Shown piece by piece: positions 14,063-38,696 of a DNA stretch of 64,000 nucleotides; within the stretch, counting starts at the first letter, position 1; every line of letters begins with the position of its first letter. The translations under genes were made by a program, and so were the position numbers. The stretch is taken from assembly GCA_963675595.2 (NCBI GenBank), contig CAXXLZ010000001.1:768001-832000 (forward strand), in the 5' to 3' direction. The notes under the pieces were generated by a model. It saw only the letters and a list, made by a program, of their open reading frames with translations, searched no databases and was not told the origin of the DNA. The DNA is from Thermodesulfobacteriota bacterium (GTDB lineage: Bacteria > Desulfobacterota > Desulfarculia > JACQYL01).

Positions 14063-14098
14063 CGGTCCCCTCTCGTAGGCACTTCAGGAAGGTTCCTT

Positions 14099-14626
14099 CT
14101 ATTTTCCAAACGGCACGCCCAAAGCATAAATCTTGATCCGAACCCACTGCTTCCGCAGCGGCATGGGAGGGAGTCGTTTCATGATGCGCCTGTTGATGAA
14201 GGAAGGGAACAGGTGGCCCATGAGGATGTTCACGCACCGGGTAAATACCATGGCGTAGGCCAATATGCCCGCGACGCTGATGCGGTGTTCCGCGAAGCCC
14301 TGCGGGGTGCCGATCTGTGCGGTGAGCACCATGAAGGCGCTTTCCGTGTTCTTGAAGCTGATCGTGAGCTCCGCGTCTTCCGGTCCTCCGCCCAGGTATC
14401 GGAGCCCTGCGTCGCTCTTCAGGAGGGTCATGGCGGCACCACAGGGCGACACTCTCATTTGAATCCTGAATCCCTCCGGGATGGACGCGAGTTCCCGTTT
14501 CACGTCCGGGTCATGCATGGATGCCGACTGCAACCCCCGTCCCATGATGAAAAACACCATGCGGATGATCAGGGTCTTCAAACGCTTGGTCCCCGGTGGG
14601 ATCGGAGGAAATTTCAGCTCCTGCAT
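14099..14626 (-). CDS. SCP2 (sterol-carrier)-like hypothetical protein
   Basis: AGGAGG RBS before ATG 14626. 'AELTISFK...AFMVLTAQ...AEHRISVAG' resembles the SCP2 fold. Co-oriented just upstream of the ADH-AOR gene. Confidence 0.55.
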   Translation of the reverse strand: MQELKFPPIPPGTKRLKTLIIRMVFFIMGRGLQSASMHDPDVKRELASIPEGFRIQMRVSPCGAAMTLLKSDAGLRYLGGGPEDAELTISFKNTESAFMVLTAQIGTPQGFAEHRISVAGILAYAMVFTRCVNILMGHLFPSFINRRIMKRLPPMPLRKQWVRIKIYALGVPFGK

Positions 14627-14904
14627 GAAACCTCCTTGGCGGCCTCGGTTCGTCTTTTTCATGGCGATTCGTTTTATCCCACCCTTCCGTGTGGAGGAGG
14701 AGCCATTCGCGCGATCGGACGCGGCCGCAAGGGTCCGCCTTCTGGAACAAACTCAGTATACTCACAACTCCGTTCCCTGGTCACCGGTTTTCGGAGAGAG
14801 CGAGCGGTTCTACCGCGAACGCAATCCTCGGCCGTGAATCAAATCGGATGGATTGTTCACCGTCCTTTTGTGGTGACATAAGAGATATTTCCACTGTCAT
14901 GCAC

Positions 14905-14936
14905 AAAAAAGCGGGAATCTTCGTTGAGATTCCCGC
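14905..14936 (-). terminator. Rho-independent terminator downstream of the papain-like protease gene
   Basis: Minus strand reads GCGGGAATCT-caacga-AGATTCCCGC followed by TTTTTT. Confidence 0.8.
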
Positions 14937-15015
14937 CTGTCGTGAGTTATCGCTGTAATTATTTCACGAAACCCGTTGAGATTAGAGTCGGGCTCCGGAG
15001 CCTCTCAAAGAACCC

Positions 15016-17559
15016 TCATTCCATGCCCACCGGCTCGAATGTCTTCGAGATCATGATGTTCAGATCGGGCCGGCTGGACAGCACCGCCTTTGCGGAATCC
15101 GTATCCGTCACGGTGATGGTCAGCTGCTCACCCGTATGGGCCATGTGGGGAGCGGAAAAGACGTTTTTGAAAAACTCGCCCAAAAACGGGTGGAAATCCT
15201 CACCGTCGTAGGTATACACCGCCAGGGCGGAACCCACTTCATATTCCTGCAGATACAGGTTGAACCCCAGGTCCGCGCACTTCCAAATGCCCGAATGCAG
15301 GGTCTCTTTTGCGGGGAAGGTCTTGGTAATGGGTACTTGAACGGTGACGGGAGGCGTCTTCGTGTTGTCCGTGAGTACGGCGGTTCCCTGGGTGTCGGAA
15401 GAAAACACGATTTTCAAGGTTCGTTGCTGCTTCGGGTCCATGGAATCGGCCTGGAAGGTCCCGGAGTTGAACATGTCCGCCAGGAAGGCATAGAGGGAAG
15501 TGGGGTCCCCGGCGTAAATCACCACGGTGGACGCCGTGTCGTAATGCTGCACGTAAAAGTTGTAGTCCACTTTGTCCACGTTTCCCTTCCAGATGCCGGA
15601 ATAGGGAAGGTCGGCGATGCGAAGGCCGAAATGACCGGGCCCGCTGAGCACACCCAGTTCCCAGGTGTGATAGTAGAAGTCGGCGGAGCTGCCCCAAATC
15701 CAAAGGTGGTGCTGTTCCTCCCCATCCACCGCCGCGATGCTTCCGGAACTCTGCCCCAGTTCCGCCGTCACCGGGTAGTAGCCTCCGGCGGAAAGAGAGC
15801 CCATATCCTGTACGTCGAAGAGTTGTTCCGAGCCTCCATCGAAGTACAGTTTGTATTGATCCAGCCACCTCGCCCGCTCGAAAGAGGCGGATTCGTGCCC
15901 TATGTCGATATGGGTCCGGTATAGCAGCGCACCGTAATCGTGTCCGCTCCACGTCGTGGTGCCGGCTGCGAAATTGGCGTGAATCTGCGGATTGGAGGAG
16001 TTGATGAGTTCGAGCTCGAATTCCTGGCCGTTCAACTCCACGGAGTCGCCGTAAGCGTCGGGAGCACCCTCCGGGTTGTCGAAGTCGATGTATAAACGGA
16101 TCATATAACCCGCGCCGTCCAATATTTTTCCGGTCACCTCATGAGCGACGCCGTCGGACCCATAGTACGAACCCAGCCGCGCGTAGGAGTTGGCCGTGAC
16201 GTCCGAGAATTCGCCCGCCTGGACGTCCGTGGGGGGCATGGGTCTCGTTCGCCGGATGACGAGACGTCCGAGGTGTCCGTCATGATCCATATTCCATTCC
16301 CCCATCCACATGGCTTCGGGATTTTGACCCAGGAAGGGGCTCCTGACGCCGAGGACCACCGCGCCGCCGCCCGCCTGTTTCTCGATGTAATCGTAGGGAA
16401 CCCACAGGTAGGGAAGGTCGGGACCCCAGGAATTCTTGAGCAGGAGGAGCTTGCGTGTTCTGTCGTAGCCGATGATGAGGAGGGCGTGCCCGCTGACGGC
16501 ATCCTCGGTGTGGTTGGTGAAATCGCAAATGGGGTTCCCGTCGTCGTAGGTCTGTCCCGTATTACAGTCCAGATAGGGCTGATTGGCGCCACCCGGCTGG
16601 GACGCCGGGGGAGCGGCCTCCCAATTCAATCCGATGTAGACCTCCTTCTGATCCGCCAGGGTGTCCTCGATCAGCGAACTGTCCCTGGCCTCCGTCATGG
16701 TAAGAATCAACACACGTGTTGGTCCGTATTCGGCATTCTTCCGAGCGTCCAGGGGGATGAGCCGTTCATCGAATTCGTACGCGTCCAGCGCTTCCTGAGT
16801 CAGGGTGATTGCGGTTGCATTGCCCTTGTCGTCGAACTGATCGCACACCATACCCGAGTCCGTAACGATCGTGGCCCGGTCGGCGTCGCCGTGATAGGTC
16901 CCGTACTTATAGAGCTGGACATTGGCTCTGCCGAAATAAGGGGCATACTTCTCCAGAGGCAGGAACAGTCCGTTGGTGGCCGCCAAGGCGTGCCCGGGCA
17001 ACGTATGATCGGTATGGGTTCCGCACTGGGAAGTCCAGTTGTCGTGCATGAGTTCCGGCCGGTACGAGGCGTGGCTGGTGAAGACAATATGGATGAAATA
17101 TTCTTCCGAAAGATCGAACTCCTCACAACCCGCGTAACATTCAGGCGTGACGCAAATGAGGCTGCAATCGTTGGTGATGCCGTATTCCTGCCAGCGGGTC
17201 CATCCATCGGTGTACCGGTTCAGTTCGTGCAACCCATAAGTGCGGACGTACGCCGCCTCGAGGGCGCCGAGAAAGGCGAAGGACGGGCAGGAGCCGCGGT
17301 TGTTCTGGTCCTTCACTTCCGTTTGATAGGCCTTCAAGTCCAAATAGTCCGCGCTCGCGGGAGCCAGGGAAGCTCTAAATTCTTCCAACAGTTTCTTCTG
17401 TTCGGGCGAGACGGAGCGAATGGTCAGGCTTTCGGCGGGAACCAGGGTCGGCGGATCGTCGTATGCTCCCACGGCCTTGCCGGAATGGGCCTGTCGGGTC
17501 GGAACCAATGTGCAGAGCATTGCGACGACAAGAAGCAATCTCACAAGACCTGTGCGCAT
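15016..17559 (-). CDS. Secreted papain-like (C1A) cysteine peptidase with C-terminal accessory domains
   Basis: AAGGAG RBS, signal peptide, catalytic motifs QNNRGSCPSFA, DLSEEY, SGHALLIIGYD, LKNSWG. Confidence 0.85.
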   Translation of the reverse strand: MRTGLVRLLLVVAMLCTLVPTRQAHSGKAVGAYDDPPTLVPAESLTIRSVSPEQKKLLEEFRASLAPASADYLDLKAYQTEVKDQNNRGSCPSFAFLGALEAAYVRTYGLHELNRYTDGWTRWQEYGITNDCSLICVTPECYAGCEEFDLSEEYFIHIVFTSHASYRPELMHDNWTSQCGTHTDHTLPGHALAATNGLFLPLEKYAPYFGRANVQLYKYGTYHGDADRATIVTDSGMVCDQFDDKGNATAITLTQEALDAYEFDERLIPLDARKNAEYGPTRVLILTMTEARDSSLIEDTLADQKEVYIGLNWEAAPPASQPGGANQPYLDCNTGQTYDDGNPICDFTNHTEDAVSGHALLIIGYDRTRKLLLLKNSWGPDLPYLWVPYDYIEKQAGGGAVVLGVRSPFLGQNPEAMWMGEWNMDHDGHLGRLVIRRTRPMPPTDVQAGEFSDVTANSYARLGSYYGSDGVAHEVTGKILDGAGYMIRLYIDFDNPEGAPDAYGDSVELNGQEFELELINSSNPQIHANFAAGTTTWSGHDYGALLYRTHIDIGHESASFERARWLDQYKLYFDGGSEQLFDVQDMGSLSAGGYYPVTAELGQSSGSIAAVDGEEQHHLWIWGSSADFYYHTWELGVLSGPGHFGLRIADLPYSGIWKGNVDKVDYNFYVQHYDTASTVVIYAGDPTSLYAFLADMFNSGTFQADSMDPKQQRTLKIVFSSDTQGTAVLTDNTKTPPVTVQVPITKTFPAKETLHSGIWKCADLGFNLYLQEYEVGSALAVYTYDGEDFHPFLGEFFKNVFSAPHMAHTGEQLTITVTDTDSAKAVLSSRPDLNIMISKTFEPVGME

Positions 17560-19684: not shown

Positions 19685-20896
19685 CTACACCAACCACCGT
19701 ACGTGGTAGTCCGCCTTTTCCAACCGATCGACGATATCTTGCGAATGTTCGGCGTCCCGCGTTTCGAGGTTGAGTTGTACCCGGGAGAATTTGATGGGCG
19801 TTTGCAGGGATAGGCGGTCGTGAACGATGTGCAGGATATTGGCTTCGAGTTCGGCGACAATGCCCAGGAGGTTCCAAAGGGCCCCCGGCACGTCCGGCAG
19901 GTCCAGTTCCAGACGGATCAGCCTTCCCATGCGCATGGCGCCACGCTGGAGAATGCGGTCGATGACTGCGGTTTCGACGTTGCCGCCGCTCACGATGAGA
20001 ACATAACGCCTGCTTTGGATGTGGATTCGTCGTTCCATCAGGGCGGCCAGGGGGACCGCGCCCGCTCCCTCCACGACCAGACCGGCGCGTTCAATAAAGG
20101 TGAAAACGGCTCCGGCGATGGCCTCTTCATCCACGGTGACGATTTCGTCCACGAAGTCCCGCATGATGTCATAGGTCAGGTCGCCGGTCTTGCTCACGGC
20201 GATTCCGTCGGCCAGTGTGGGCAACGCATCCACCCGGATGGGCTTCCCCATTTCTCGTGATGCCTGCGCCGAGGGGCAGCTTTGCGTTTGGACTCCCACA
20301 ACGCGCACGGCGGGATTGATGGATTTGACCGCCGTTGCGATACCTGAAATGAGCCCTCCTCCTCCAACGGGCACCACCACCGTGGTGTCCGGAGTGAGGA
20401 CCTCGTTGATCTCGACTCCTATAGTCCCCTGGCCGGCCATAACGTGAAGATCGTCAAAAGCCGGGATCAGTACCTTCCCGGACTTTGCGGAGAGTTCCGC
20501 GGCATGGGTTTTCGCGTCATCAAAACAGGAGCCGTGGAGCACGACTTGGGCCCCCATTTCCCGGACGGCGGCCAATTTGCGAATGGACGCGTTCTTCGGC
20601 ATGACCACGGTGGCCCGTAATCCGAGCCGGTTCGCGGCCCAGGCCACTCCCTGTGCATGGTTGCCCGCGGAGGCGGCCACCACACCTTCGGCTCTCTCGT
20701 CTTCCGTGAGGCGCAGGAGGCGATTGTAGGCGCCCCTTACCTTGAAGGAACCGGTTTCCTGAAGGTTTTCCAGTTTGAGGCAGACCTCCGCCCCCACCTG
20801 ACGACTCAATGAGCCCGAACGTATCAGGGGAGTGGCGGGAAGCACTTGTTGCAGCGTCGTGTGAGCGCTGCGAATGTCTTCAATGGTGAGGTGCAT
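19685..20896 (-). CDS. ilvA: Threonine/serine ammonia-lyase with C-terminal ACT domain
   Basis: PLP lysine motif KLENLQETGSFKVRGA, SAGNHAQG, PVGGGGL, SGGN, and ACT segment 'LPDVPGAL'. Confidence 0.92.
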   Translation of the reverse strand: MHLTIEDIRSAHTTLQQVLPATPLIRSGSLSRQVGAEVCLKLENLQETGSFKVRGAYNRLLRLTEDERAEGVVAASAGNHAQGVAWAANRLGLRATVVMPKNASIRKLAAVREMGAQVVLHGSCFDDAKTHAAELSAKSGKVLIPAFDDLHVMAGQGTIGVEINEVLTPDTTVVVPVGGGGLISGIATAVKSINPAVRVVGVQTQSCPSAQASREMGKPIRVDALPTLADGIAVSKTGDLTYDIMRDFVDEIVTVDEEAIAGAVFTFIERAGLVVEGAGAVPLAALMERRIHIQSRRYVLIVSGGNVETAVIDRILQRGAMRMGRLIRLELDLPDVPGALWNLLGIVAELEANILHIVHDRLSLQTPIKFSRVQLNLETRDAEHSQDIVDRLEKADYHVRWLV

Positions 20897-20954
20897 GGCG
20901 GCGTTCCGTAACGGCATGGACTCAAGTGGGTTGGGCGTAAAATTCGACGGATGA

Positions 20955-21425
20955 TCAGAGATCAAGAATTCGTTTCAATGCCGAGGGCTCTAATCGAAAG
21001 GGACTTCCTTTGCCTTGGTAAAAGCCGTGGTCATGGATCATATGCACGACCAAGTCGGTGTAGCTGATCTTTTCGCCGGTTTCTTTTTTCTCCAGTCGAA
21101 CCATCCCCTTACGGTAAAGTCCCGGATGGGGCCAGGGACAGGCGATTTTTCCCCGGGCTTCTTGAACTTCCACCAGGAAAGCTCCTTCCACTTCCACCGG
21201 CTCCCCCCATCCTTTTCTGCCTTCTTCCATAAGCAGATGTAACCGATCCGCGATTTGCTCATGCGTGAGGCCCAAGGAATGGACCGTACAATCGTCTCCG
21301 CTCAGGATTTCGATCAAACGTCGGTCGTCTTGACCCATGAAGCCGTGAGCAGGAGAGGCCCGAAGTCTCATCTTCTCTTCCAACCGATCCAGCCACGGAC
21401 CTTGGATCACCCGGTCCTGCGCCAT
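20955..21425 (-). CDS. Hypothetical protein with CPWxH and HxxxxHGFYxG motifs
   Basis: 156-aa ORF with GAGGAG RBS, packed between the NqrF-like gene and ilvA. Confidence 0.7.
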   Translation of the reverse strand: MAQDRVIQGPWLDRLEEKMRLRASPAHGFMGQDDRRLIEILSGDDCTVHSLGLTHEQIADRLHLLMEEGRKGWGEPVEVEGAFLVEVQEARGKIACPWPHPGLYRKGMVRLEKKETGEKISYTDLVVHMIHDHGFYQGKGSPFRLEPSALKRILDL

Positions 21426-21446: not shown

Positions 21447-22550
21447 TCAGGCAAACTTGTCATAGAATATTTGTTCCTTGGGAACGCCCATTTGGGTAAG
21501 CTGCTGCTCGACGGACTCCACCATGGCCGGATTTCCGCAGATATAGGCTTCCACATTGGAGGGGTCCTTAACGAGATCGGGGATGACATCGGTAACACGA
21601 CCCCGCGGGCCTTCCCATTGCTCATGTTCTTCGGGTCTGGAAAGGGTGTGTACGACCTTGAGATCGGGAATCCGTTCTTTCAGCCGGTTCAGTTCCTCGA
21701 GGTAAAACAGGTCTCCCATACGGCGGGCCCCGAAGACCAGAAAGACTTTGCGGCGAATGTTTTCGTCCGCCAAGTGGTGCAGGATGGACATGATGGGGGC
21801 GAGTCCGGAGCCTGTGGCCACCAACAGAACATCCCGCTCCGAATCTCTGAGGTAGAATTCTCCATGGGGACCGTTAAGAAGCGTTTCGTCCCCTTCGTTC
21901 AGATGTTCATGCACGTAAGTCGTGGCGATGCCTTGGGGCACACGCGTAATGATCAGGTGAATTTCTTCGCCTTTGCTCGCCGGTGAAGCGATGGAATAGG
22001 CGCGATAAACCGGCTCGTCCGAATCTCCGTATTCGGGGATTCGAAGCTGGACGAACTGGCCGGCCTTGAATTCCATCACGGGCGGATCGACGAGTTTCAA
22101 GCGGACCTCCTTCATATCCTCGGCGATGTCTCGAAGTCCCGATATCCTGGCCGTGAACTCCTTAATGTAAAACAACTCGGGTGGAATGTGGATGGCCAGA
22201 TCGTTGCGAACCTTCACCTGGCAGGAAAGTCGAACTTGGTCCTCGATTTCCTTCTTGTCCAGATAAGGCGTCTCCGTGGGCAAGAGGGGACCGGCTCCTT
22301 CGGAAACCTTGACCTTGCAGAGACCGCAGCTTCCTCTCCCGCCGCAAGCCGAAGGAATGAAAATACCTTCGTCGGTCAATATCCCCAGCAGGTGTCCTCC
22401 CCCTTGGACCACCAGTTCCCGATCGCCTTCATTGATGGAAATCCTGCACTCTCCATAATCTGCGAAATAGGAATCGGCGGTTTCGAGGCACAAAGCGAGG
22501 AACCCCGCGAGTGCGCTCAATGCCAGAATTCCTACGAAAACACTCACCAT
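21447..22550 (-). CDS. nqrF: NqrF-like membrane-anchored [2Fe-2S]/FAD NAD(P)H oxidoreductase
   Basis: N-terminal TM helix, CGGRGSCGLC...RLSC, RAYSIAS, ATGSGLAP, YICG, terminal DKFA. Confidence 0.85.
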   Translation of the reverse strand: MVSVFVGILALSALAGFLALCLETADSYFADYGECRISINEGDRELVVQGGGHLLGILTDEGIFIPSACGGRGSCGLCKVKVSEGAGPLLPTETPYLDKKEIEDQVRLSCQVKVRNDLAIHIPPELFYIKEFTARISGLRDIAEDMKEVRLKLVDPPVMEFKAGQFVQLRIPEYGDSDEPVYRAYSIASPASKGEEIHLIITRVPQGIATTYVHEHLNEGDETLLNGPHGEFYLRDSERDVLLVATGSGLAPIMSILHHLADENIRRKVFLVFGARRMGDLFYLEELNRLKERIPDLKVVHTLSRPEEHEQWEGPRGRVTDVIPDLVKDPSNVEAYICGNPAMVESVEQQLTQMGVPKEQIFYDKFA

Positions 22551-22560
22551 GGATCGGACC

Positions 22561-23154
22561 TCACTGCATCTGGATCATGCCGCTGAAACCCATGAATGCG
22601 AGGGCCATCAGACCGGCAATAATGAGGCTGATCCCGGGACCCTCCAAAGGGGTCGGGATTTTGGCTTTGGCGAGCTTCTCCCGGATGCCGCCCATGGCCA
22701 CGATGGCCAAAGTCCATCCGATTCCTCCTCCGGCACCGTAGGCCACGGATTGGACAAAAGAGTAGTTACGGATGATCATGAAAAGGCAAACCCCAAGAAT
22801 TGCACAATTCACGGTGATCAATGGAAGAAATACGCCCAGGACGACGTAAAGTACCGGAGAATAGCGTTCAATGACCATTTCAACCAACTGAACAAAAGCG
22901 GCGATAACGATGATAAACGCGATGAAACGAAAGTGCTCAAGGCCGAAGGGCACGAGGAGTTGGTGATAGACGAGATGGTTCAGCCCGGACGTGCACGTCA
23001 TCACGAAAATGACTGCCAAGCCCAAGCCGAGTGCCGGCTTCACCTCCCTCGATATGGCCAGGAAGGAGCACATACCCAGGAAGTTGGTCAGCAGGATGTT
23101 GTTCGTAAAGATCGCCGCGAAAAAGATTACGAACGCGGTGGTGCCTAGTTCCAT
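22561..23154 (-). CDS. nqrE: NqrE/RnfA family membrane subunit
   Basis: Cys-containing motifs FLGMCSFLAIS and LPLITVNCAILG. Confidence 0.88.
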   Translation of the reverse strand: MELGTTAFVIFFAAIFTNNILLTNFLGMCSFLAISREVKPALGLGLAVIFVMTCTSGLNHLVYHQLLVPFGLEHFRFIAFIIVIAAFVQLVEMVIERYSPVLYVVLGVFLPLITVNCAILGVCLFMIIRNYSFVQSVAYGAGGGIGWTLAIVAMGGIREKLAKAKIPTPLEGPGISLIIAGLMALAFMGFSGMIQMQ

Positions 23155-23164
23155 GGGAAATCCT

Positions 23165-23800
23165 TCAACGTGCGGCCGTTTCCGCGCCGCCTTCCTTCTT
23201 GTCGGATTTGGATCCGGCGGCGCGGACGATCCAAATCACCACGGCCAGCATAAAAAAGGCTCCGGGCGGCATTACCATTATCGTCCAGCGGGTCATGTCC
23301 GATGGGGTTACCGGGTAACCGAAAACCGTTCCGAACCCCAGAAGTTCCCTGACGAAGGCCACGGCGAGAAGTACCAGCGCATATCCCAATCCCGAAGCGA
23401 TACCGTCGATGAAACTCGGCCACGGAGGATTGTTCCTGGCGAAGGCTTCGCATCTTCCCATAATGATGCAGTTGGTGATGATGAGCCCCACGTATGCGCC
23501 CAACGCTTCGCTGATATCCGGCAGGTAGGCCTTCAGCAAAATATCCACGATGATTACGTAGGAAGCGATGATCAGGGTTTGAACCATCATCCGGATGCGT
23601 GAGGGCGTCACCTTTCTCAAAATGGAGACGGTGACACAGGATAGAGAGGTGACGAAAATAAGGCTGACGCCCATGATCAGGGTATTCAACATGAGATTCG
23701 TTACGGCCAGAGCCGAACAAATTCCGAGGATCTGCCTGAATACGGGGTTCTCTTCCCACAACCCCTTGATCATGATTTTTCGAGTGCCGATGTGACCCAC
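23165..23800 (-). CDS. nqrD: NqrD/RnfE family membrane subunit
   Basis: NP..QILGICSALAVT and VGLIITNCIIMGR. Confidence 0.88.
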   Translation of the reverse strand: MGHIGTRKIMIKGLWEENPVFRQILGICSALAVTNLMLNTLIMGVSLIFVTSLSCVTVSILRKVTPSRIRMMVQTLIIASYVIIVDILLKAYLPDISEALGAYVGLIITNCIIMGRCEAFARNNPPWPSFIDGIASGLGYALVLLAVAFVRELLGFGTVFGYPVTPSDMTRWTIMVMPPGAFFMLAVVIWIVRAAGSKSDKKEGGAETAAR

Positions 23801-23816
23801 AATTGACCTCTTGACC

Positions 23817-24470
23817 TTATTTGGACCCTATTCGTTTTCCCGACAACTCGGCGAGTTGGGGCAGCACCCTGTGGATACTCGCGTTTATGAGCCGCTCGAC
23901 GGCTTTGCTGGTACCCGTGGCGCCGGTGACGGCATCGACTTCGTTCGCCCCTTTGACGGCTTCGGGCGGGCGCAGCCGGAAAAATACTTCGTCCGGGGCC
24001 GGCGATGAGGGAAGCATTTTACCTTTGAATTGCTCGGTGAACCAGGATTCGCTGATTCTACCACCCAGTCCGGGTGTCTCGGAATGCTTGTAAAAGGCGA
24101 CACCAAGGACCTCTCGAAGATCGGGACCTAGACCCATCATGCCGTGAATGGGACCCCAGAATCCCGGTCCCGACAGTTGAAAGGCATAACCCACGGTCCC
24201 GGCGCCGTGATCCGATTTGCCGATGTATACGGGACCGGACTCCAATTGCACCGTTTTCACCCTGTTCTTGAACAGCTCCAACACCCCCTGACCTTCGACA
24301 CCGGGAGGCACCGAAATATTCAGAACTTTGAGGATGATCCCCTCTAATTTGATCCGGTCGTTGGTTTCGATTCTGTCCTGGTTCAATCCATACACGATGC
24401 TGACCACCGTGCCGAAGAACAGGGTGATCAGGAACATGTACAAAACCGAAAATGCCCTGTTTCGTTTCAT
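23817..24470 (-). CDS. nqrC: NqrC/RnfG family FMN-binding subunit
   Basis: GPGFWGPI, HSETPGLG, and flavinylation motif DAVTGAT. Confidence 0.88.
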   Translation of the reverse strand: MKRNRAFSVLYMFLITLFFGTVVSIVYGLNQDRIETNDRIKLEGIILKVLNISVPPGVEGQGVLELFKNRVKTVQLESGPVYIGKSDHGAGTVGYAFQLSGPGFWGPIHGMMGLGPDLREVLGVAFYKHSETPGLGGRISESWFTEQFKGKMLPSSPAPDEVFFRLRPPEAVKGANEVDAVTGATGTSKAVERLINASIHRVLPQLAELSGKRIGSK

Positions 24471-25435
24471 GCCTTTTTTTCACCGCGGTGCTGTAGTTCT
24501 TTGACGGCGATATCCATCACTGCCGCGAAGGTGTTCATGAAAAGGACGGAAAACATGAATCCTTCGGCGAAACTCGAATAGGCTCGAAAGGTCATGCACA
24601 GGCCCCCCACGATAAACCCGTAGATCCATTGGGCCGGTTTTGTTTTGGGCCCGGTGATGGGTTCGGTGACCACGAAAAAAGCGCCGAACAGAAAAGAGCC
24701 GGCCAGCATTGAAGTCAGGGGATCCTGCACGTTCACGCCGGCCCACCACAGGAGGATGCTCACAATGGCGGCTCCCAGCAGGCACGACACGGCGAGACGC
24801 CAGGGAGCGGATTTCTTAAAGATGATGTAGGCACCGCCGATGAGTATCAACCAAGCGGCGGTTTCCCCCAGGGAACCGGACACCGTGCCCCAAAACAGAC
24901 CCTCCGTGGATACGTTCCCTCCTTCGGCGAGTACCTGCAAGGGGGTGGCGCGACTCACGGCGTCCACGGACGGAGTCCAGTGAAGAAAACCTCCGGGGAA
25001 TTGGGAAAAGGGCTCGACCCACTTGTTGGTCATGGCCGTGGGAAACGCTATGTAGATGAAACAGCGGCCGGCCATGGCCGGATTAAACGCATTGAAGCCG
25101 AAGCCCCCAAAGACCATCTTTCCGAATACCACCGCAAACAATATCCCTACCAGGGCCATCCAGAAAGGGATCGTGGGCGGCAGACTCAGAGTATAAATCA
25201 GTGAGGTCACCAGCACGGCGGAAGTGATGGGCTTGCCTTGTTTCAACGTGAACAGACCTTCGGCAATCACGGCGGCCGCAGTGACCATGAGCAGGAGAAC
25301 CAACGACCGAACTCCGAAAAAGAAAACCGAGGCCGCCAGACACGGCGCCAGACCGTAACACACGTGCACCATCATGGGTTGCACGAGGAATCTCTTCTTG
25401 CCCTTGGGGGCTGCTTTGGCTTCCTGTGGGGTCAC
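24467..25435 (-). CDS. NqrB/RnfD family membrane subunit (short, RnfD-sized)
   Basis: KMVFGGFGFNAFNPA, flavinylation motif DAVSRATPL, GSLGET, TEPITGP. 322 aa. Confidence 0.88.
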   Translation of the reverse strand: MTPQEAKAAPKGKKRFLVQPMMVHVCYGLAPCLAASVFFFGVRSLVLLLMVTAAAVIAEGLFTLKQGKPITSAVLVTSLIYTLSLPPTIPFWMALVGILFAVVFGKMVFGGFGFNAFNPAMAGRCFIYIAFPTAMTNKWVEPFSQFPGGFLHWTPSVDAVSRATPLQVLAEGGNVSTEGLFWGTVSGSLGETAAWLILIGGAYIIFKKSAPWRLAVSCLLGAAIVSILLWWAGVNVQDPLTSMLAGSFLFGAFFVVTEPITGPKTKPAQWIYGFIVGGLCMTFRAYSSFAEGFMFSVLFMNTFAAVMDIAVKELQHRGEKKA

Positions 25436-25551
25436 ATTCCGATCCGAAAGTTAACGATTCTCCGCGGCGAACTCCGATCCCGCACGTCCCGCACACCACC
25501 GCAGTTTAGATTTCGTTGCAGGCGATTTCAACAGAAGAAGAAATATCCGGA

Positions 25552-25580
25552 ATTATATATCTTGGAGGGCCTGATGAGAA
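25552..25580 (-). promoter_or_regulatory. Candidate sigma70 promoter for the nqr-like genes
   Basis: Minus strand TTCTCA-N17-TATAAT in the 236-bp spacer between lpdA and the NqrB/RnfD gene. Confidence 0.45.
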
Positions 25581-25671
25581 AGCCTTGCGAAGGGCCGGAT
25601 GTATTCGGCGAGATCGGCCCTCCCTACCGGTGCGCCCGGCGCAGCGGGCGTCACTCGCCGGTCTGACGCGG

Positions 25672-27120
25672 TTATTGCTCCACATGTGCTCGGTTCTTCC
25701 CGCTTTTTGGAAGGACATGCGTGGATGTTCCCATGATGATCTCGGCGGCTTCACCTTCGGTTTCCGACAGAGTCGGGTGCGCATGAATGGTGAGCGCCAA
25801 GTCTTCGGCCACAGCGCCCATCTCCATGGCGAGGACCGCTTCCGCTATGATTCCTTCGGCCTGGCGTCCCACGACTCCGACGCCCAGAATTCTACCGTCC
25901 TCCGGGTTTACGATCATTTTGGTCATTCCTTCGGGCGCCTCCATACTCAAGGCACGCCCGGAGTATTTCCAGGGGAAGCGTGACACTTCCACCCTGATTC
26001 CTTTGGCTCGGGCCGACTCTTCAGTAAGGCCGCACCATGCGATCTGGGGTGTGGTGTACACCACCGCGGGAATCGCCCGTACGTCGAACGCCGACGACTT
26101 CCCGGCGATGACTTCGGCGGCGATCTTGCCCTCACGCATGGCCTTGTGGGCCAGCATGTATCCACCGACCACATCGCCGATCGCCAGAATTTTGGGGTCG
26201 GAGGTTCGTTGTTGATCGTCCGCTACCACGTAACCCCGGTCATTGAGTTTCACTTGCGTGTTTTCGAGTCCCAATCCCTGAGTGTTCGGGTCCCTGCCGA
26301 CGGCTACGAGCACCCGATCGAATGTCCGATCGGCGTTTTCCCCCTCTCCCTCAAGAGAAACCTCCACACGGTCGTCGAACTCCTTCAAGGATTTGACTTT
26401 CGTGTTGAAGTGAATCGCTTTGAAAGCGCTCTCGAGTCTTCGTTTCAGGGGCGCCACCAAATCCGGATCCGCCGGACGCACCAATCGGTCCCTGTGCACC
26501 ACCAGGGTGATTTCCGTGCCCAAAGAGGCGTACACGGAGCCCATTTCCAACGCTACGTAGCCTCCCCCCACGATAAGCATGGACTTCGGGATATCAGATA
26601 ATTTGAGAGCTCCGGTAGAACCGAAAACACGGCCGTCTTCGTTGATGGAGATACCTTGAAGAGTGCTGGGCCGGGAACCGGTGGCCAGGATTGCGTGACG
26701 GAAACGAATGCGGCGCACTTCGGCGTCCTGGAGGCGCACCGTGTCCGAGCTCTCAAAGGTCGTTTTTCCCTTGATGAATTGAACGCCGCGCTTCTTGCAC
26801 AATTCCAGAAGACCGTCTGTGAGCTTACTCACCACGCCGTCTTTCCAACCGCGAATCTTATCGACGTCGATTTTCGGCTCCCCGAAGGTAAGGCCGAAAG
26901 CGGAGGCCTCTTGCGCGTCGTTGATCAATTCGGACACGTGGAGCAAGGCCTTGGAAGGGATGCAGCCCCGATTGAGGCAGACGCCTCCCGGCTTGGGGTC
27001 CATATCCACCATGGCTACATCCAGGCCGAGGTCGGCCGCTCGAAAGGCCGCCGCATATCCACCCGGACCGCTGCCGACGACCAGCAGCTCAACGTCTTCC
27101 GTGAATTCGCCCATGACCAT
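25672..27120 (-). CDS. lpdA: Dihydrolipoamide dehydrogenase (E3) with NADP-type fingerprint
   Basis: GSGPGGY, redox disulfide GGVCLNRGCIPSK, HAHPTLSE. Confidence 0.95.
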   Translation of the reverse strand: MVMGEFTEDVELLVVGSGPGGYAAAFRAADLGLDVAMVDMDPKPGGVCLNRGCIPSKALLHVSELINDAQEASAFGLTFGEPKIDVDKIRGWKDGVVSKLTDGLLELCKKRGVQFIKGKTTFESSDTVRLQDAEVRRIRFRHAILATGSRPSTLQGISINEDGRVFGSTGALKLSDIPKSMLIVGGGYVALEMGSVYASLGTEITLVVHRDRLVRPADPDLVAPLKRRLESAFKAIHFNTKVKSLKEFDDRVEVSLEGEGENADRTFDRVLVAVGRDPNTQGLGLENTQVKLNDRGYVVADDQQRTSDPKILAIGDVVGGYMLAHKAMREGKIAAEVIAGKSSAFDVRAIPAVVYTTPQIAWCGLTEESARAKGIRVEVSRFPWKYSGRALSMEAPEGMTKMIVNPEDGRILGVGVVGRQAEGIIAEAVLAMEMGAVAEDLALTIHAHPTLSETEGEAAEIIMGTSTHVLPKSGKNRAHVEQ

Positions 27121-27197: not shown

Positions 27198-28541
27198 TCA
27201 GATGACCATGAGTAATCGCTCGGGATCCTCCAATGCCTTGACGATTTCGATCAGGAAGCGTTCGGCGTCCGCCCCGTCGAGTACCCTGTGATCGAAAGAA
27301 AGCATGATGGGCAGAATCAACCTGGGTTTGATTTCATAGTCTCCGTTTTCCACGTCCCCTTGGACGACGGGCTGCCATGAAGCCCGGGCAAGCCCCAAAA
27401 TGGCCGCCTCAGGATAATTGATGATGGGGGCGAAGGCGGTTCCCCCCAAAGGACCGATGTTTGTAATGGTGAAGGTGCCGCCCTGCATTTCTTCCAGTTT
27501 GATTTTTCGGTCTCGGGTTCTTTGGGACAGCTCGAAAAGTTCCACCGCCAGTTCGCGGATGCTTTTGCGGTCCACGTCGCGGATCACCGGTACGATGAGT
27601 CCGTCCGGCGTGTCCACGGCTACTCCGATATGATAATATTTCTTCAGAATGATTTCTTCGGATTCCATGTCCAACGAGGCGTTGAAGCGGGGGAATTTCT
27701 TCAAGGCGGCAACGGCCGCTTTCAGGGCGAACACCGTGAGCGTAAGTCGGCCGCCGAGTTCCTCGATTTCCTGTTTATGCTTTTTCCGCAGGGCGTCCAG
27801 TTGGGTGATATCCGCGATTTCCTGGCTGCCCACATGAGGGATCTGCGCCCATGCCAGGGCCATCTGACGGGCGGTGGCTTTCCGCACCGAACGCAGGGGG
27901 ATCCTTTCCACTTCTCCCCATTTACCCATGTCCGGAAGAGTGGGGGCCTTGGTGGATGGGGCTTCGACCGGTCGAGCTGCTTTTTCCTGTCTCGTCGGGG
28001 TCGCTTCCGCTTGTGCCGAAAAGGCCTTAACGTCTTCGGAGGTTACCCGTCCCGAAGGGCCGGACGGAGTCACCCGGTGCAGGTCGACTCCCAACTCGCG
28101 AGCGAGACGCCTGGTAGCCGGAGAGGCCGGAACCGGTCCTTGCTCCGTGGTCTTCGCCTCCTCCCGACCTTGCTTCGAGGGTTCGGGTTTGGGTTGCTCG
28201 GGAGGTTTCTTCTTGGGTTCCTCTCCCTCGGCCTTGGCCTTCTCGTCTTCTTCCTTCTCGGGCTTGGCTGAGGCGGACGACGGCTCCTGTTTCGGGGGCG
28301 CCGCTCCGTCGGAAAAGGTCACGAGCACATCTCCCACGTGAACCACATCGCGCACTTGCACCGAGATCTTTTCCACGGCTCCTGTGAAGGGGGACGGAAT
28401 CTCAACGGTGGCTTTGTCCGTTTCGACCTCGAGAATGGGGTCTCCTTCCTCGACTTGGTCCCCTTGGTTGACCAGAATGGAGACAATTTCTCCTTCGTGG
28501 ATTCCTTCTCCCAGATCGGGCAGCTTGAATTCCGCAGACAT
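27198..28541 (-). CDS. pdhC: Dihydrolipoamide acyltransferase (E2), single lipoyl domain
   Basis: Lipoyl motif EVETDKA, E3-binding ASPATRRLARELGVDL, catalytic FDHRVLDG. Confidence 0.93.
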   Translation of the reverse strand: MSAEFKLPDLGEGIHEGEIVSILVNQGDQVEEGDPILEVETDKATVEIPSPFTGAVEKISVQVRDVVHVGDVLVTFSDGAAPPKQEPSSASAKPEKEEDEKAKAEGEEPKKKPPEQPKPEPSKQGREEAKTTEQGPVPASPATRRLARELGVDLHRVTPSGPSGRVTSEDVKAFSAQAEATPTRQEKAARPVEAPSTKAPTLPDMGKWGEVERIPLRSVRKATARQMALAWAQIPHVGSQEIADITQLDALRKKHKQEIEELGGRLTLTVFALKAAVAALKKFPRFNASLDMESEEIILKKYYHIGVAVDTPDGLIVPVIRDVDRKSIRELAVELFELSQRTRDRKIKLEEMQGGTFTITNIGPLGGTAFAPIINYPEAAILGLARASWQPVVQGDVENGDYEIKPRLILPIMLSFDHRVLDGADAERFLIEIVKALEDPERLLMVI

Positions 28542-28553
28542 GGGTTCTCCTCG

Positions 28554-29537
28554 CTATTTCACGCTCAAGACGTTTCGGGCCGCTTTGGTGATCCGTTGCG
28601 CATCGGGGAGGTAGTCGTTCTCCCTTGCGAACAGAGGAATCACGATATCGAAGCCCGTGACGCGGGCAATGGGGGCCTCCAGATAGAAGAAAGCCTTTTC
28701 CATGATTCGGGTGATAATCTCCGCACCCGGTCCAAAGCTCCTGGGAGCTTCGTGAACGATCACGGCCCTTCCGGTCTTGCGTACCGATTCGGCGATCGGC
28801 TCGTCGTCCAGGGGAGAAATCGTCAGCAGATCGATGACCTCACATTCCACACCGTCGGATTCCTTCAGTTGCTCGGCCGCTTCGAGGGTAGGGCGCATCA
28901 TGGCCCCGTAGGCCACCATGGTCAGGTCCTTTCCTTCCCGGACAACTCGGGGCTTCCCGATGGGGAAAGTCTCCTCTTCTTCGGGGACCTCTTCCCTGAA
29001 TGCTCGATACACAGCCTTGGGTTCGTAAAAAATTACCGGGTCGGGGTCCCGGATGGCGCTGATAAGTAGAGATCGGGCGATTCTCGGGCCGGACGGGATC
29101 ACCATTTTGAGGCCGGGCGTATGAGCCCAATAGGCTTCGCGGCTCTCGGAATGGTGCTCAAGGGCGCGTACGCCCCCACCGTAGGGCGTCCTCAATACCA
29201 TGGGAACCTGATATTTCCCCTGGGAGCGTCTTCGGATGCGGGCGGCGTGGCTTTCCAGTTGATGGAAATTCTCATAAGTGAAACCCGAAAACTGAATTTC
29301 ACAGATCGGCCGCAGGCCATAGATCGCCATGCCGATGGACATGCCGACAATGCCTGATTCAGCCAAGGGTGTGTCCATGACCCGATTTTCCCCGAACTTC
29401 CCGACAAGGCCCTCCGTGACCCGGAAAACCCCCTCGTCTCTGCCCACGTCCTCGCCGAGGAGGATGACACGGTCGTCTTTTTCCATCTCCTGATGCAACG
29501 CCAAATTGATCGCCTGGACCATGTTCATTTTAGCCAT
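28554..29537 (-). CDS. pdhB: 2-oxoacid dehydrogenase E1 beta subunit
   Basis: GEDVG..GVFRVT, DTPLAESGI, EIQF, ALEHHSES. Confidence 0.93.
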   Translation of the reverse strand: MAKMNMVQAINLALHQEMEKDDRVILLGEDVGRDEGVFRVTEGLVGKFGENRVMDTPLAESGIVGMSIGMAIYGLRPICEIQFSGFTYENFHQLESHAARIRRRSQGKYQVPMVLRTPYGGGVRALEHHSESREAYWAHTPGLKMVIPSGPRIARSLLISAIRDPDPVIFYEPKAVYRAFREEVPEEEETFPIGKPRVVREGKDLTMVAYGAMMRPTLEAAEQLKESDGVECEVIDLLTISPLDDEPIAESVRKTGRAVIVHEAPRSFGPGAEIITRIMEKAFFYLEAPIARVTGFDIVIPLFARENDYLPDAQRITKAARNVLSVK

Positions 29538-30636
29538 GATCAGCCTCCTGCCTGCGCTCACTCAGCTCCCGGGAAAGCTCTTCTTTTTGCTCTTCGAGGG
29601 CGGGAGTCAACTCTTGGAAGGTATGGAGAAACATGTCGAGCGGGTCTCCGGAGTCTTTCATCATCTTCTCCGAATGCTCCACCGCGGTCTGGATTTCGGC
29701 CTTGATCTCTTCTTCGATCCCTTCGATGTCCTTGTCGGTAAGAAGCCCCTTGTTCTTCAGGTAGGTCTGATATCGAACGATGGGATCCTTCTTTTTCCAT
29801 TCGTTCACTTCGTCTTCGGACCGGTACCTTTTGGGATCGTCGGCGGTGGTGTGCATCATGATTCGGTAGGTCTCACATTCGATCAAAGTGGGGCCTTCTC
29901 CTTTGCGGGCCCTATCCACCGCTTCACCCACGGCGGTGTAAACCGCGAGGATATCGTTTCCGTCCACTTGGATGCCGGGTATGCCGTAGGCAATGGCCTT
30001 CTGTGCCAAAGTCTTGGAGCGGGTCTGTTTGGACCGGGGCACGGAAATCGCCCACTGGTTGTTTTGGCAAACGAAAATCACCGGGAGCGTGAAAACGCCG
30101 GCGAAATTCATGGCTTCGTGAAAATCCCCTTCCGAGGTGGCGCCGTCGCCGAAGAAAGTCATGGCCACGGAGTCCTTCTCACGATATTTCATTCCCCAAG
30201 CCAAACCAACGGCGTGGAGAGTCTGGCTTCCTACCGGCACGGCTATGGGAAGGTCGTTGCGATCGTCCTCGGGCCTTCCTCCTTCGTCATACCCGGCAAA
30301 ATAGAGGAGTGCGGAAGCAGGGTCTTTGCCGCGCCAGGTCTCCGCCAGGCTTTCCCTGAAGCACGGCACCATCCAGTCATCCCTGCGGAGATGAACCGCG
30401 GCTCCCAGTTGCGCCGCCTCCTGGCCCGAAATAGGGGCGAAAGTCCCGATCCGGCCTTGTCGCTGCAGGTTCAAGAGGCGTTCGTCGAATCTTCTTCCGG
30501 ACAGCATGGCCCTATGCATCTTAAGCAGAAAGTCGTCCGGGATGTCGGGCTCCAGGGATTGATCCAATTCTCCATGTTCGTCCAGAATGGACAAACGCTC
30601 CACCCGGCAGGGCAGATCGATTTCCGTCCTCGGCAT
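29530..30636 (-). CDS. pdhA: 2-oxoacid dehydrogenase E1 alpha subunit
   Basis: ThDP motif GDGATSEGDFHE...QNN, HTTADD, LQRQGRIG. Confidence 0.93.
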   Translation of the reverse strand: MPRTEIDLPCRVERLSILDEHGELDQSLEPDIPDDFLLKMHRAMLSGRRFDERLLNLQRQGRIGTFAPISGQEAAQLGAAVHLRRDDWMVPCFRESLAETWRGKDPASALLYFAGYDEGGRPEDDRNDLPIAVPVGSQTLHAVGLAWGMKYREKDSVAMTFFGDGATSEGDFHEAMNFAGVFTLPVIFVCQNNQWAISVPRSKQTRSKTLAQKAIAYGIPGIQVDGNDILAVYTAVGEAVDRARKGEGPTLIECETYRIMMHTTADDPKRYRSEDEVNEWKKKDPIVRYQTYLKNKGLLTDKDIEGIEEEIKAEIQTAVEHSEKMMKDSGDPLDMFLHTFQELTPALEEQKEELSRELSERRQEADHG

Positions 30637-35629: not shown

Positions 35630-37285
35630 TCACTCCGTATCGGCCGGTGCCTCTCGCTCCCAATAAGGCTGAATCAGGTCCTCGAAGATGCTCATGGCGG
35701 CCTCGGCGCCTTGCCCCGCGGCGGTCACAATTTGTTTGTATCCGCCTTCCACGTCCCCTGCGGTATAAATGCCGGGAAGAGAAGTACGGTGTTTCGCATC
35801 GCGTTGGACGTAACCTTCCGACGTGAGTTCGAGTCCGAGCTTCTTGGCTAGGGCGTTCTCGGGTTCGTAGCCGATTGCAACGAACACTCCGTCCACTTCC
35901 TTCACCGAAACTTCCTGTGTGGCGTTGTTGAAAAGCTCCACTTCGGTGACTCGGTTCTTGCCTCGAATTTCCCGTATCTCGGTATTGTAGAGTATGGGGA
36001 TGTCGTTGCCGGTCAGGTTGGCCGTCAGGTGTTCTTGAGCGCGCAGCCGATCCCTCCGATGAACCAATGTGACGTCGACCCCGATGTTCTTCAAGTGCAA
36101 AGCCTCGGTGGCGGCGCTGTTGCCTCCCCCCACGATAACAACTCTCTTGCCCTTGAAAAGGGGACCGTCGCAGGTACTGCAGTAGCTGACCCCTCGTCCT
36201 GAGAGTCGGTTCTCTCCTTTGGCGCCGAGCCGACGGTGATGAGCGCCCGTGGCCAACAGAACCATTTTGGTGAGGAAGCGACGCCGGTTGGAAAGAACTT
36301 CCATGGGGTGTCCCGGACGAATCTCCATCACTTCTTCCCCCTGGAAGATTTGGACGTATTCCAGAGCATGGCTCACCATAAAGTCGACCAGAGCTTTGCC
36401 TCCCACCTGATTGAATCCCAAATAATTTTCCACGACCGGTGTGGTGGCCACCTGCCCACCAAGAAGACCGCGCTCCAAAAGCACGGCGTTCAGCCCGGCC
36501 CTAACGGCATAAATCGCCGCGGTGAGGCCCGCGGGGCCGCCTCCAACGATCACCAAATCCGTTTCCACCAGATCCGCATCGCTTTCCGGAATGAAAAAAG
36601 TCTTTTCTTCGAGAGAGGTCAGGGAGGAAATGAAGAGTTCCTCAGGTTGTGCGCCCTGTGCGATGAGCACTCCGTCGGAGTGGGTCTGAGGGACACTCTG
36701 AGCGTCATATTCGTCCGCCAGATCCGGGTGTGCCTGAACATCCACAAGTTCCAGAGAGACCAGCTCCGGTTTTTCCACCACGGCCTTGATGGCGTTGACG
36801 GCCTGCTGAGGGCAGTACGGACAGGTTGGGCTGATAAAAACCTTCACGTTTCGTGGGGTGTCCAGTTTCTCGATCACCTTCATCGATTGTTCGCTCAGCT
36901 TACTTTTCCCCATACCCAGCAGCAAAAGAGCCTCAACGAAGGTACGGCCTTCCTCTCCTATGGGAGCGCCCATCCAACGAAAACCATACTGCTCCGGGTT
37001 GATGAGAAAAGTGGGGGAGAAGTCGACATTCCATTTCTCGGCGAGATCGTGATCCAGTGGGAATTCTTCCAGCGCTATCTTCGGAGACAGCTTGGCGAAA
37101 AGCCTCAGTACTTTTCGTGCGGCTTCGTTATAGCCCTCATTTTTGCCCGGAGCGGTGAACAGTGCAATGCGGACTTCACGGGGAAGTTGCTCCAAAATCT
37201 CACCGAGTTGATCACGAAGCTCCTTTTCTTGATGTGAATCATGCGTGTGATGCGCTTCGTGTTGATGTTCGGACCGGTCCGGCAT
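35630..37285 (-). CDS. Thioredoxin reductase fused to N-terminal PDO/AhpF-NTD-like thioredoxin domains
   Basis: CPYC in the N-terminal part; GGGPAG, GRGVSYCSTCDG, GGGNSA, HRRDRLRA, TAGD. Confidence 0.88.
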   Translation of the reverse strand: MPDRSEHQHEAHHTHDSHQEKELRDQLGEILEQLPREVRIALFTAPGKNEGYNEAARKVLRLFAKLSPKIALEEFPLDHDLAEKWNVDFSPTFLINPEQYGFRWMGAPIGEEGRTFVEALLLLGMGKSKLSEQSMKVIEKLDTPRNVKVFISPTCPYCPQQAVNAIKAVVEKPELVSLELVDVQAHPDLADEYDAQSVPQTHSDGVLIAQGAQPEELFISSLTSLEEKTFFIPESDADLVETDLVIVGGGPAGLTAAIYAVRAGLNAVLLERGLLGGQVATTPVVENYLGFNQVGGKALVDFMVSHALEYVQIFQGEEVMEIRPGHPMEVLSNRRRFLTKMVLLATGAHHRRLGAKGENRLSGRGVSYCSTCDGPLFKGKRVVIVGGGNSAATEALHLKNIGVDVTLVHRRDRLRAQEHLTANLTGNDIPILYNTEIREIRGKNRVTEVELFNNATQEVSVKEVDGVFVAIGYEPENALAKKLGLELTSEGYVQRDAKHRTSLPGIYTAGDVEGGYKQIVTAAGQGAEAAMSIFEDLIQPYWEREAPADTE

Positions 37286-37467: not shown

Positions 37468-38571
37468 TTATTTTTTCAGCGAGTACTTTTCCGACACGAT
37501 ATCGTAGTAAGGCTTCTCAGAAACGGTGCCCCAAGTGCCAACCTGCTTCTTGAACTTCTCGAAGGCTTCGTTCACTTTGTTCGACATGGCGTCCTTGGCG
37601 GCTTCTTCCTTCAGAGTCTCATGGGCCAGCACCCGGAGCGCGTCGAGAACCTCGGCCGGAAACTGAACCAGTTCCACGTTGTGCTTGTAGATCAGCTCCT
37701 GGAGGGCGGCGCCGTTCTGAGCCTCGAACTCGGACAAACTCCAGAGGTTGGTTTCCATGGCCACCGCGTCGATGATTACCTGCAGGTCCTTAGGTAGGGA
37801 ATCGTAGACTTTCTTATTGAAGATGACCTCGAGCGTTGTGCCGGGTTCATGCCAGCCCGGGTAATAGTAGTATTTGGCCGCTTTGTAGAGACCCAAGCGC
37901 AGGTCGTGCATGGGGCCCACCCACTCCGTCGCGTCGATTACGCCTCTTTCCAAGGAGGTGAAGATTTCCGCCGCAGGGAGAAGCACCACCGTACCTCCCG
38001 CTTTGCTGACCACTTTTCCGCCTAGCCCCGGGATTCTCATCTTGAGGCCTTTGTAGTCGTCGATGGTCTCGATCTTCTTGTTGAACCAGCCGCCCATCTG
38101 GACGCCCGTATTACCTTGGGGTCTGGGAACCAAATTGAAAGGAGCGTAGACCTCTTCCCATAGTTGCAGTCCGCCGCCGCTGTAGAACCAGGTATTCTGG
38201 CCTTGGGGGTTGAAGCCGAAGGGTACGGCGGCAAACCATTGGGCCGCCGGGACCTTTCCCGCCCAGTAGTAGGAAGCTCCGCTGCCCACTTCCACCGTGC
38301 CGTCGGATACGGCGTCAAAAGTCCCCAAAGGCGGGACCAGTTCTCCGCCGGCAAAAACGTGGATTTTGATCCGTCCTTCCGTGGCTTCTTCCAAGCGCCG
38401 GGCGAATCGCTCGGCGCCTTCCTGCAACACGGGGAACTTCGGCGGCCATGTAGTCACCATCTTCCAGTTGTAGGTCTTCTTGGCCCATACGGCCGGTGCC
38501 GAAAGGGTCGTGCCTGCAGCGGCCGCCACCGAGCCTACCGCCGCTTTTTTCAGGAAATCTCGTCGTTCCAT
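37468..38571 (-). CDS. dctP: TRAP transporter solute-binding protein (TakP-like), Tat signal
   Basis: ERRDFLK twin-arginine signal, GNTGVQMGGWF, KMRIPGLGG, YYYPGWHE. Confidence 0.9.
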   Translation of the reverse strand: MERRDFLKKAAVGSVAAAAGTTLSAPAVWAKKTYNWKMVTTWPPKFPVLQEGAERFARRLEEATEGRIKIHVFAGGELVPPLGTFDAVSDGTVEVGSGASYYWAGKVPAAQWFAAVPFGFNPQGQNTWFYSGGGLQLWEEVYAPFNLVPRPQGNTGVQMGGWFNKKIETIDDYKGLKMRIPGLGGKVVSKAGGTVVLLPAAEIFTSLERGVIDATEWVGPMHDLRLGLYKAAKYYYYPGWHEPGTTLEVIFNKKVYDSLPKDLQVIIDAVAMETNLWSLSEFEAQNGAALQELIYKHNVELVQFPAEVLDALRVLAHETLKEEAAKDAMSNKVNEAFEKFKKQVGTWGTVSEKPYYDIVSEKYSLKK

Positions 38572-38696
38572 GGCAATTACCTCCTTCTTCTTGGTGGTGG
38601 AAAAAAAGAAGCAGCCGTTTCTTGCATCGAACGAGCCGGCTCGCATCCTGGAACCAATGGAAAACCGGGCACAAACAGAACTTCGGCCTCAAGTCG

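Follow-up and report, generated by a model that had tools for sequence, protein, structure and literature searches.

In a 64,000-nucleotide stretch of a Thermodesulfobacteriota genome (contig CAXXLZ010000001.1; hereafter the window), the minus strand encodes an E3, or dihydrolipoyl dehydrogenase (P0001), whose second Rossmann unit carries the nucleotide-binding pattern of glutathione reductase. The determinants of coenzyme specificity in this flavoprotein family, like its chemistry, are well established, and the classical 2-oxoacid dehydrogenase complexes take NAD+ as their acceptor. Judged by these determinants, the window E3 probably prefers nicotinamide adenine dinucleotide phosphate (NADP+) and would make an NADPH-producing 2-oxoacid dehydrogenase complex, the substrate of which is likely to be pyruvate and possibly also 2-oxobutyrate.

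The coenzyme site of the E3

The gene and the positions on which this reading turns are as follows.

25672..27120, minus strand: E3, dihydrolipoyl dehydrogenase, 482 amino acids (P0001), with a second Rossmann unit of apparent NADP type (TIGR01350, Pfam domains)
26467..26568, minus strand: coenzyme fingerprint, residues 185-218 (translation, alignments, model, covariation)
26551-26553, minus strand: A190 of GxGxxA (translation, alignment)
26497-26499, minus strand: V208, end of beta-2 (translation, alignment, model)
26476-26478, minus strand: R215 (translation, alignment)

Reverse-complement translation of 26476-26568 gives GGGYVALEMGSVYASLGTEITLVVHRDRLVR, followed in the full open reading frame by PAD, and this is exactly the string from which a first-pass annotation of the DNA had proposed a natural NADP fingerprint; the E. 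coli strings that the annotation had set beside it agree with the real product of E. coli K-12 lpd. We took the lpd and gor products (Lpd, the E. coli E3, and Gor, glutathione reductase) from the annotated K-12 genome and aligned them with P0001, comparing the fingerprint against CHARACTERISED enzymes. No gap falls in the fingerprint stretch, either in this alignment or in the one that phmmer gives with PDB 4jdr. The NAD+ fingerprint of an E3, GxGxxG plus an acid ending beta-2, is absent from P0001, which has A190 and V208 instead, while the NADPH fingerprint of glutathione reductase, GxGxxA with the acid missing and Arg/Lys and Arg following, is present. The pattern described in the annotation, GxGxxA with Val for Glu and basic residues after it, thus stands, His/Arg/Arg lying where Gor has Arg/Lys/Arg, and the alignment that had been proposed as its check places Val rather than an acid at the 2'-OH site. 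The positions exchanged between Gor and Lpd in published engineering align as follows.

Window E3 A190; Gor A179; Lpd G187
Window E3 G194; Gor A183; Lpd G191
Window E3 V208; Gor V197; Lpd E205
Window E3 H209; Gor R198; Lpd M206
Window E3 R210; Gor K199; Lpd F207
Window E3 D211; Gor H200; Lpd D208
Window E3 R215; Gor R204; Lpd P212

Of these seven residues of the window E3, three are identical to those of Gor (A190, V208, R215); H209 and R210 are basic as in Gor, whereas G194 and D211 agree with Lpd. An AlphaFold2 model of P0001 built from 61 sequences (mean predicted local distance difference test score 94.0, predicted template modelling score 0.90) has a strand at 180-184, a helix at 188-199 and a strand at 203-207, which makes V208 the residue ending beta-2 of the beta-alpha-beta unit. 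This is the classical place of the NAD-specifying acid.

A nucleotide site of the glutathione reductase type leads us to expect NADP+ preference and hence NADPH from oxidative decarboxylation. Val208 replaces the acid that binds NAD+ by a hydrogen bond to its adenosine 2'-OH and keeps a 2'-phosphate away, and Ala190 replaces the third glycine of GxGxxG. In the mechanism that we propose, His209, Arg210 and Arg215, lying at the places of Gor Arg198, Lys199 and Arg204, would hold the 2'-phosphate. The E3 would then use NADP+ rather than NAD+ to reoxidize the dihydrolipoyl arm of E2, so that decarboxylation of pyruvate, and possibly also of 2-oxobutyrate supplied by the threonine dehydratase of the cluster, would yield NADPH.

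The departure from the NAD+ fingerprint is predicted to bear on the coenzyme and not on lipoamide chemistry. P0001 scores 484.8 bits on the TIGR01350 equivalog model (cut-off 408.8) and contains the Pfam domains Pyr_redox_2 and Pyr_redox_dim. Its nearest solved structure is E. coli Lpd (PDB 4jdr; phmmer E 7e-130, residues 10-470 aligned), with 45% identity to Lpd over the full length in our alignment and 27% to Gor. Throughout the 61 sequences of alignment A2, C48 and C53 of the redox CxxxxC motif and H448 and E453 of the His-Glu dyad do not vary, and they line up with those of E. coli Lpd. The glutathione reductase models all stay below their cut-offs for P0001 (NF004776, 292.4 against 480; TIGR01424, 256.5 against 606; TIGR01421, 245.4 against 556), and it falls far below those of the mercuric reductase and mycothione reductase models as well.

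Gene context suggests a lipoylated partner, since the E3 gene is the fourth and closing gene of a complete E1alpha-E1beta-E2-E3 operon, an order conserved in all relatives examined, and adjoins an E2 with an E3-binding domain.

27198..28541, minus strand: E2 acyltransferase, 447 amino acids (Pfam Biotin_lipoyl, E3_binding, 2-oxoacid_dh)
28554..29561, minus strand: E1 beta, 335 amino acids (Transket_pyr and Transketolase_C; NF006667 304.6 bits, under the cut-off of 321)
29530..30636, minus strand: E1 alpha, 368 amino acids, pyruvate dehydrogenase type (TIGR03181 458.4 bits, over the cut-off of 411.35; E1_dh)

Besides its E3-binding domain, the E2 has a single lipoyl domain, marked by the DKA lysine motif, and a catalytic domain, marked by DHRxxDG. 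PF00198 matches no other protein in the genome, which is 98% complete; P0001 is the sole E3 over the TIGR01350 cut-off there, and the P and T proteins of glycine cleavage were not found in it. The E3 therefore appears, from the gene content, to be dedicated to this single complex. Lipoyl synthase is encoded in the genome. Sharing of the E3 with a glycine cleavage system was considered and set aside because of the missing P and T proteins, although three GcvH-like lipoyl-carrier genes exist (G000:C2, positions 297643, 2789653 and 2110538). A further E3, of the NAD type, was looked for in the genome and not found, the next match being a protein of 360 bits, below the cut-off, acid-less and with no E2 adjoining.

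That paralogue (G000:C2:4396985-4398346; locus L002, 1420-2928, minus strand) is a 502-amino-acid MerA-like or FAD-containing oxidoreductase with GxGxxA and an acid-less end of beta-2, and it is predicted not to be the E3 of a complex. Its gene adjoins a 320-amino-acid open reading frame that may resemble DUF547.

Conservation of the fingerprint and the competing readings

The 120 closest homologues of P0001 (62-70% identity, mostly metagenome proteins of Desulfobacterales and other Desulfobacterota) fall into two types at positions 190, 208 and 215, with Ala, Val/Ile/Leu and Arg in 78, Gly, Glu/Asp and a residue other than Arg in 41, and a mixed G/V/R combination in one. The three positions thus covary in 119 of 120 sequences. 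Across the E3 family as a whole, sampled as 150 representatives of 50%-identity clusters, position 208 is an acid in 131, a non-acid in 18 and a gap in one, and the full Ala/Val/Arg triple occurs in only two representatives, both of them fragments from the same clade as the window E3. The representative closest to P0001, P0123 with 60% identity, belongs to the NAD type. The description of this type as rare accordingly holds for the family (18 of 149 representatives lacking the acid) and fails within the Desulfobacterota clade, where the type accounts for 79 of the 120 close homologues. The covariation (119/120), together with the conservation of the acid (131/149), rules out that the motif arose by chance or drift. 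As to distribution, a close orthologue of the window E3 (E <= 1e-100) is encoded by 3 of 40 relatives, and one at E <= 1e-120 by 21 genomes in a sample of 400 others from the phylum.

We computed a quick maximum-likelihood tree (IQ-TREE, LG+G4) of 91 rows, leaving out the columns of the fingerprint (residues 183-220). Rooted on E. coli Lpd as the outgroup, it comprised the window E3, 29 E3s whose loci had been fetched and every other sequence among the 120 homologues; the remaining 60 homologues, loci L022 and L068 and 40 loci of other phyla, mostly gammaproteobacterial, were omitted. All 43 Ala-type rows sit in one starred clade of 71 rows, which also contains an NAD-type clade of 28 rows. 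The tree needs three changes, of which the starred branches force at least two, and a constraint keeping the 43 Ala-type rows together was not rejected by the approximately unbiased (AU) test (p = 0.41). These data thus allow the Ala/Val/Arg type to have arisen only once. A reversion from NADP to NAD within the clade is hinted at by the tree; we do not claim it, because the AU test allows all 43 rows to group together.

A second acid-less type, Gly/His/Arg, is found in the E3s of three loci from one family (L101-L103, in genomes G271, G213 and G350), which keep GxGxxG, end beta-2 with V-H-R-G/T and have no Arg at the Pro212 position. It branches outside the 71-row clade and, on this tree, arose separately from the Ala/Val/Arg type. 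The coenzyme preference of this variant lies outside what the known rules can read from its residues.

The main rival to NADP+ preference is dual specificity, in which a site that has lost the acid and acquired basic residues would admit NADP+ without excluding NAD+, and the complex would feed both pools. The available text of PMC8406311 reports undetectable NADP+ activity for wild-type E. coli Lpd and, for evolved Lpd carrying E205G or E205A alone, the use of both coenzymes with similar efficiency (kcat/Km NADP+/NAD+ of 0.6-1.9); loss of the acid alone therefore gives no specificity. This is one of several points that count against a preference for NADP+, and dual specificity would accommodate it together with the two positions, G194 and D211, at which the window E3 remains Lpd-like, and with the standing of P0001 as the only E3 over the cut-off in its genome. 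In addition, the first basic position is His209, against Arg in Gor and in engineered Lpd; no NADPH-consuming partner was identified, the NqrF-like protein encoded next to the E3 having an acid-containing loop like that of NADH-specific NqrF; and no enzyme of this E3 clade was found described in the literature that we searched. What tells against dual specificity is that A190, R210 and R215, with H209, are kept jointly in 78 of 120 homologues, which exceeds the need for merely admitting NADP+, and that an engineered Lpd with an equivalent set of five substitutions favors NADP+ over NAD+ about 100-fold, as stated in the same available text. We consider dual specificity rather unlikely, and preference for NADP+ remains the reading that we favor.

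Two further readings seem very improbable to us. Fingerprints taken from sequence are fallible, and the E3 might still depend on NAD+ if the ribose hydroxyls were held by another residue, such as E203 or the conserved D211, which lies three residues past the end of beta-2; however, E. coli Lpd has the same Asp (D208) and yet needs E205, and the strict covariation of three positions is hard to account for without a change of ligand. The enzyme could alternatively work mainly in reverse and use NADPH to reduce lipoyl groups or disulfides, perhaps for a defence based on thiols in which E2 would act as carrier; it would then not serve a catabolic complex as its terminal oxidase. The reductive members of the family usually take their electrons from NADPH (Gor, MerA and mycothione reductase are among the matches), the organism is anaerobe-like, and its three GcvH-like carriers come without P or T proteins. 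Such a role is equally hard to credit, given the place of the E3 as fourth gene of a complete operon in every relative examined and a cluster in which no peroxiredoxin or AhpD-type gene was seen.

The neighbouring Nqr-like genes

Downstream of the E3, the gene string continues with genes for Nqr- or Rnf-like membrane proteins.

25436..25671, minus strand: spacer of 236 base pairs from the E3 stop to the NqrB-like start (open reading frame coordinates, sequence)
21447..25435, minus strand: Nqr-like cluster without NqrA (family models, Pfam)
24467-25435, minus strand: NqrB/RnfD-like (NqrB model 186, cut-off 349.9)
23817-24470, minus strand: NqrC/RnfG-like (NqrC model 91.4, cut-off 144)
23165-23800, minus strand: NqrD (NF006777 244.3, over the cut-off of 235)
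22561-23154, minus strand: NqrE (NqrE model 226.3, cut-off 247.55)
21447-22550, minus strand: NqrF-like (NqrF model 248.3, cut-off 295)
20955..21425, minus strand: conserved 156-amino-acid protein (P0273) outside the known families, its gene next after the NqrF-like one
19685..20965, minus strand: threonine-dehydratase-like pyridoxal phosphate enzyme with an ACT domain, 426 amino acids, at the end of the gene string (PALP and ACT)

The cluster falls short of the six subunits, NqrA to NqrF, that define Nqr, as the NqrA model TIGR01936 had no match in the genome, and the only other Rnf/Nqr membrane genes there are at C1:102948-104108. An NqrA gene upstream of the module was sought and not found among 10 open reading frames in five loci, which encode regulators, a glyoxalase, a thioredoxin-like protein and a 2-oxoacid:ferredoxin oxidoreductase (OFOR). 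P0273 has no Pfam match, and in the protein atlas it falls only into clusters named 'hypothetical protein'. Homologues of it (E <= 1e-10) occur in 23 of the 401 Thermodesulfobacteriota genomes sampled, the window's own included, and in 20 further loci (L112-L131) the gene directly follows the NqrF-like gene without exception. NqrB-E-like genes stand beside this pair in 13 of the 20, the contig ends first in five, and a search of the fetched stretch did not find them in the other two (L128, L129). Operons of nqrA-F are known from Desulfobacteraceae (PMC4014512, PMC2702500), and the available portions of both papers make no mention of an NqrA-less form. NqrBCDEF and the 156-amino-acid protein may, from their gene arrangement, constitute a distinct Nqr/Rnf-type complex in which a new subunit replaces NqrA.

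The full string of E1-E3, NqrBCDEF and the 156-amino-acid gene recurs in G001, G002, G003 and G236 (L092); the threonine-dehydratase-like gene has the same place in G001 and G002 and is absent from it in G003 and G236. Adjacency of E3 and module is thus seen in five of seven genomes with an Ala/Val/Arg E3, being missing at L023 and L096, compared with none of 20 NAD-type Desulfobacterota loci (L062, L064-L067 and 15 more; L107 was classed from the alignment). It is likewise not seen beside the three Gly/His/Arg loci, whose genomes have the module elsewhere. The genomes with the adjacency are kin, coming from three families and two or more orders, so the count is suggestive and does not amount to a test.

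One locus, L130 (G272:C90), has a POR/POR_N/TPP_enzyme_C-type OFOR directly adjoining the NqrA-less module (13168-15782, minus strand), a second kind of 2-oxoacid oxidizer beside these membrane genes.

It is tempting to see the predicted NADP-type complex and the NqrA-less complex as a single respiratory module, in which NADPH made from pyruvate or from threonine-derived 2-oxobutyrate would be taken up by the NqrF-like subunit of a quinone reductase that translocates sodium ions or protons. The frequencies of adjacency (5/7 versus 0/20) and the OFOR in L130 speak for such a module. Against it stand the kinship of the genomes, the position of all 20 further modules away from E1/E2/E3 genes, the 236-base-pair spacer and the NADH-like loop of the NqrF-like protein, and we regard it as unlikely. 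The loop in its nucleotide domain is of the FGARxxxDLFY type, with Asp where V. cholerae NqrF has Glu, and is identical in E3-linked and stand-alone modules. An NADPH-adapted NqrF-like subunit is accordingly unsupported, the loop containing an acid as in the NADH-specific enzyme of Vibrio cholerae. If the two complexes did form one module, it would be a natural NADPH-linked entry point to respiration in anaerobic relatives of sulfate reducers.

Elsewhere in the window, an open reading frame of 1026 amino acids (10982-14062, minus strand) fuses an iron-containing alcohol dehydrogenase, its N-terminal 400 amino acids, to a tungsten-type aldehyde:ferredoxin oxidoreductase (AFOR_N, AFOR_C). A 551-amino-acid protein (35630-37285, minus strand) joins a thioredoxin-like domain to a pyridine-nucleotide disulfide oxidoreductase in an AhpF-like architecture, and its gene adjoins TRAP transporter genes (37468-40022).

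Comparison with known enzymes

Full-text searches, which covered few subscription journals, found no description of a 2-oxoacid dehydrogenase complex whose natural E3 is of the NADP type. Dietrichs and Andreesen (around 1990) reportedly found NADP(H)-dependent dihydrolipoamide dehydrogenases in anaerobic clostridia that ferment glycine or purines, and no sequence fingerprint is known to have been described for these enzymes. Their natural E3 activity with NADP in strict anaerobes is a point of likeness; they were, however, reportedly tied to glycine cleavage, which the window genome appears to lack.

With E. coli Gor the window E3 shares the residues of the coenzyme site, A179, V197, the basic pair 198/199 and R204 of Gor corresponding to A190, V208, H209/R210 and R215. 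It differs from Gor in overall sequence, in scoring below the Gor models and in a gene context that is that of an E3 operon. E. coli Lpd (PDB 4jdr), the E3 of the pyruvate and 2-oxoglutarate dehydrogenase complexes, resembles the window E3 in domains, Cys pair, His-Glu dyad and gene position after E2, although the E1 of the window operon is an alpha/beta heterodimer and that of E. coli a single chain. In the coenzyme site the two part, Lpd having GxGxxG, Glu205 and Pro212 and being inactive with NADP+ according to the available text of PMC8406311, whereas the window E3 has GxGxxA, Val and Arg.

Engineered Lpd offers another parallel. The available portion of PMC5817062, which lists Bocanegra, Scrutton and Perham 1993, gives E205V M206R F207K D208H P212R for the NADP-dependent Lpd and A179G A183G V197E R198M K199F H200D R204P for the NAD-dependent Gor, in residue numbers that fit the E. 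coli sequences aligned here. The numbers given in the first-pass annotation for the engineered residues are two lower than those printed there and in PMC8406311. The parallel that it had drawn is exact for Glu to Val and Pro to Arg and holds in kind for Met to His and Phe to Arg, which are basic like the engineered M206R and F207K, but D208H has no counterpart, as the window E3 keeps the Asp (D211). The inclusion of G185A in the engineered set could not be confirmed; the change from the third Gly to Ala is present in the window E3 and absent from the five listed Lpd mutations, and where that text names a Gly/Ala exchange, it belongs to the reverse experiment on Gor alone (A179G).

If the window E3 does prefer NADP+, its clade is a clue that some anaerobic Desulfobacterota may send 2-oxoacid oxidation into the NADPH pool, and it would offer metabolic engineering ready parts for pyruvate oxidation that regenerates NADPH. 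The clade would also be a natural experiment on the number of residues needed for a coenzyme switch. An NADP-dependent complex has so far been built by engineering, with five substitutions, or forced by laboratory evolution; unlike the five-fold and the E205G/A Lpd enzymes, the window E3 is natural and conserved in a clade, which appears to hold essentially the same solution beside sisters of about 60% identity with an NAD+ site.

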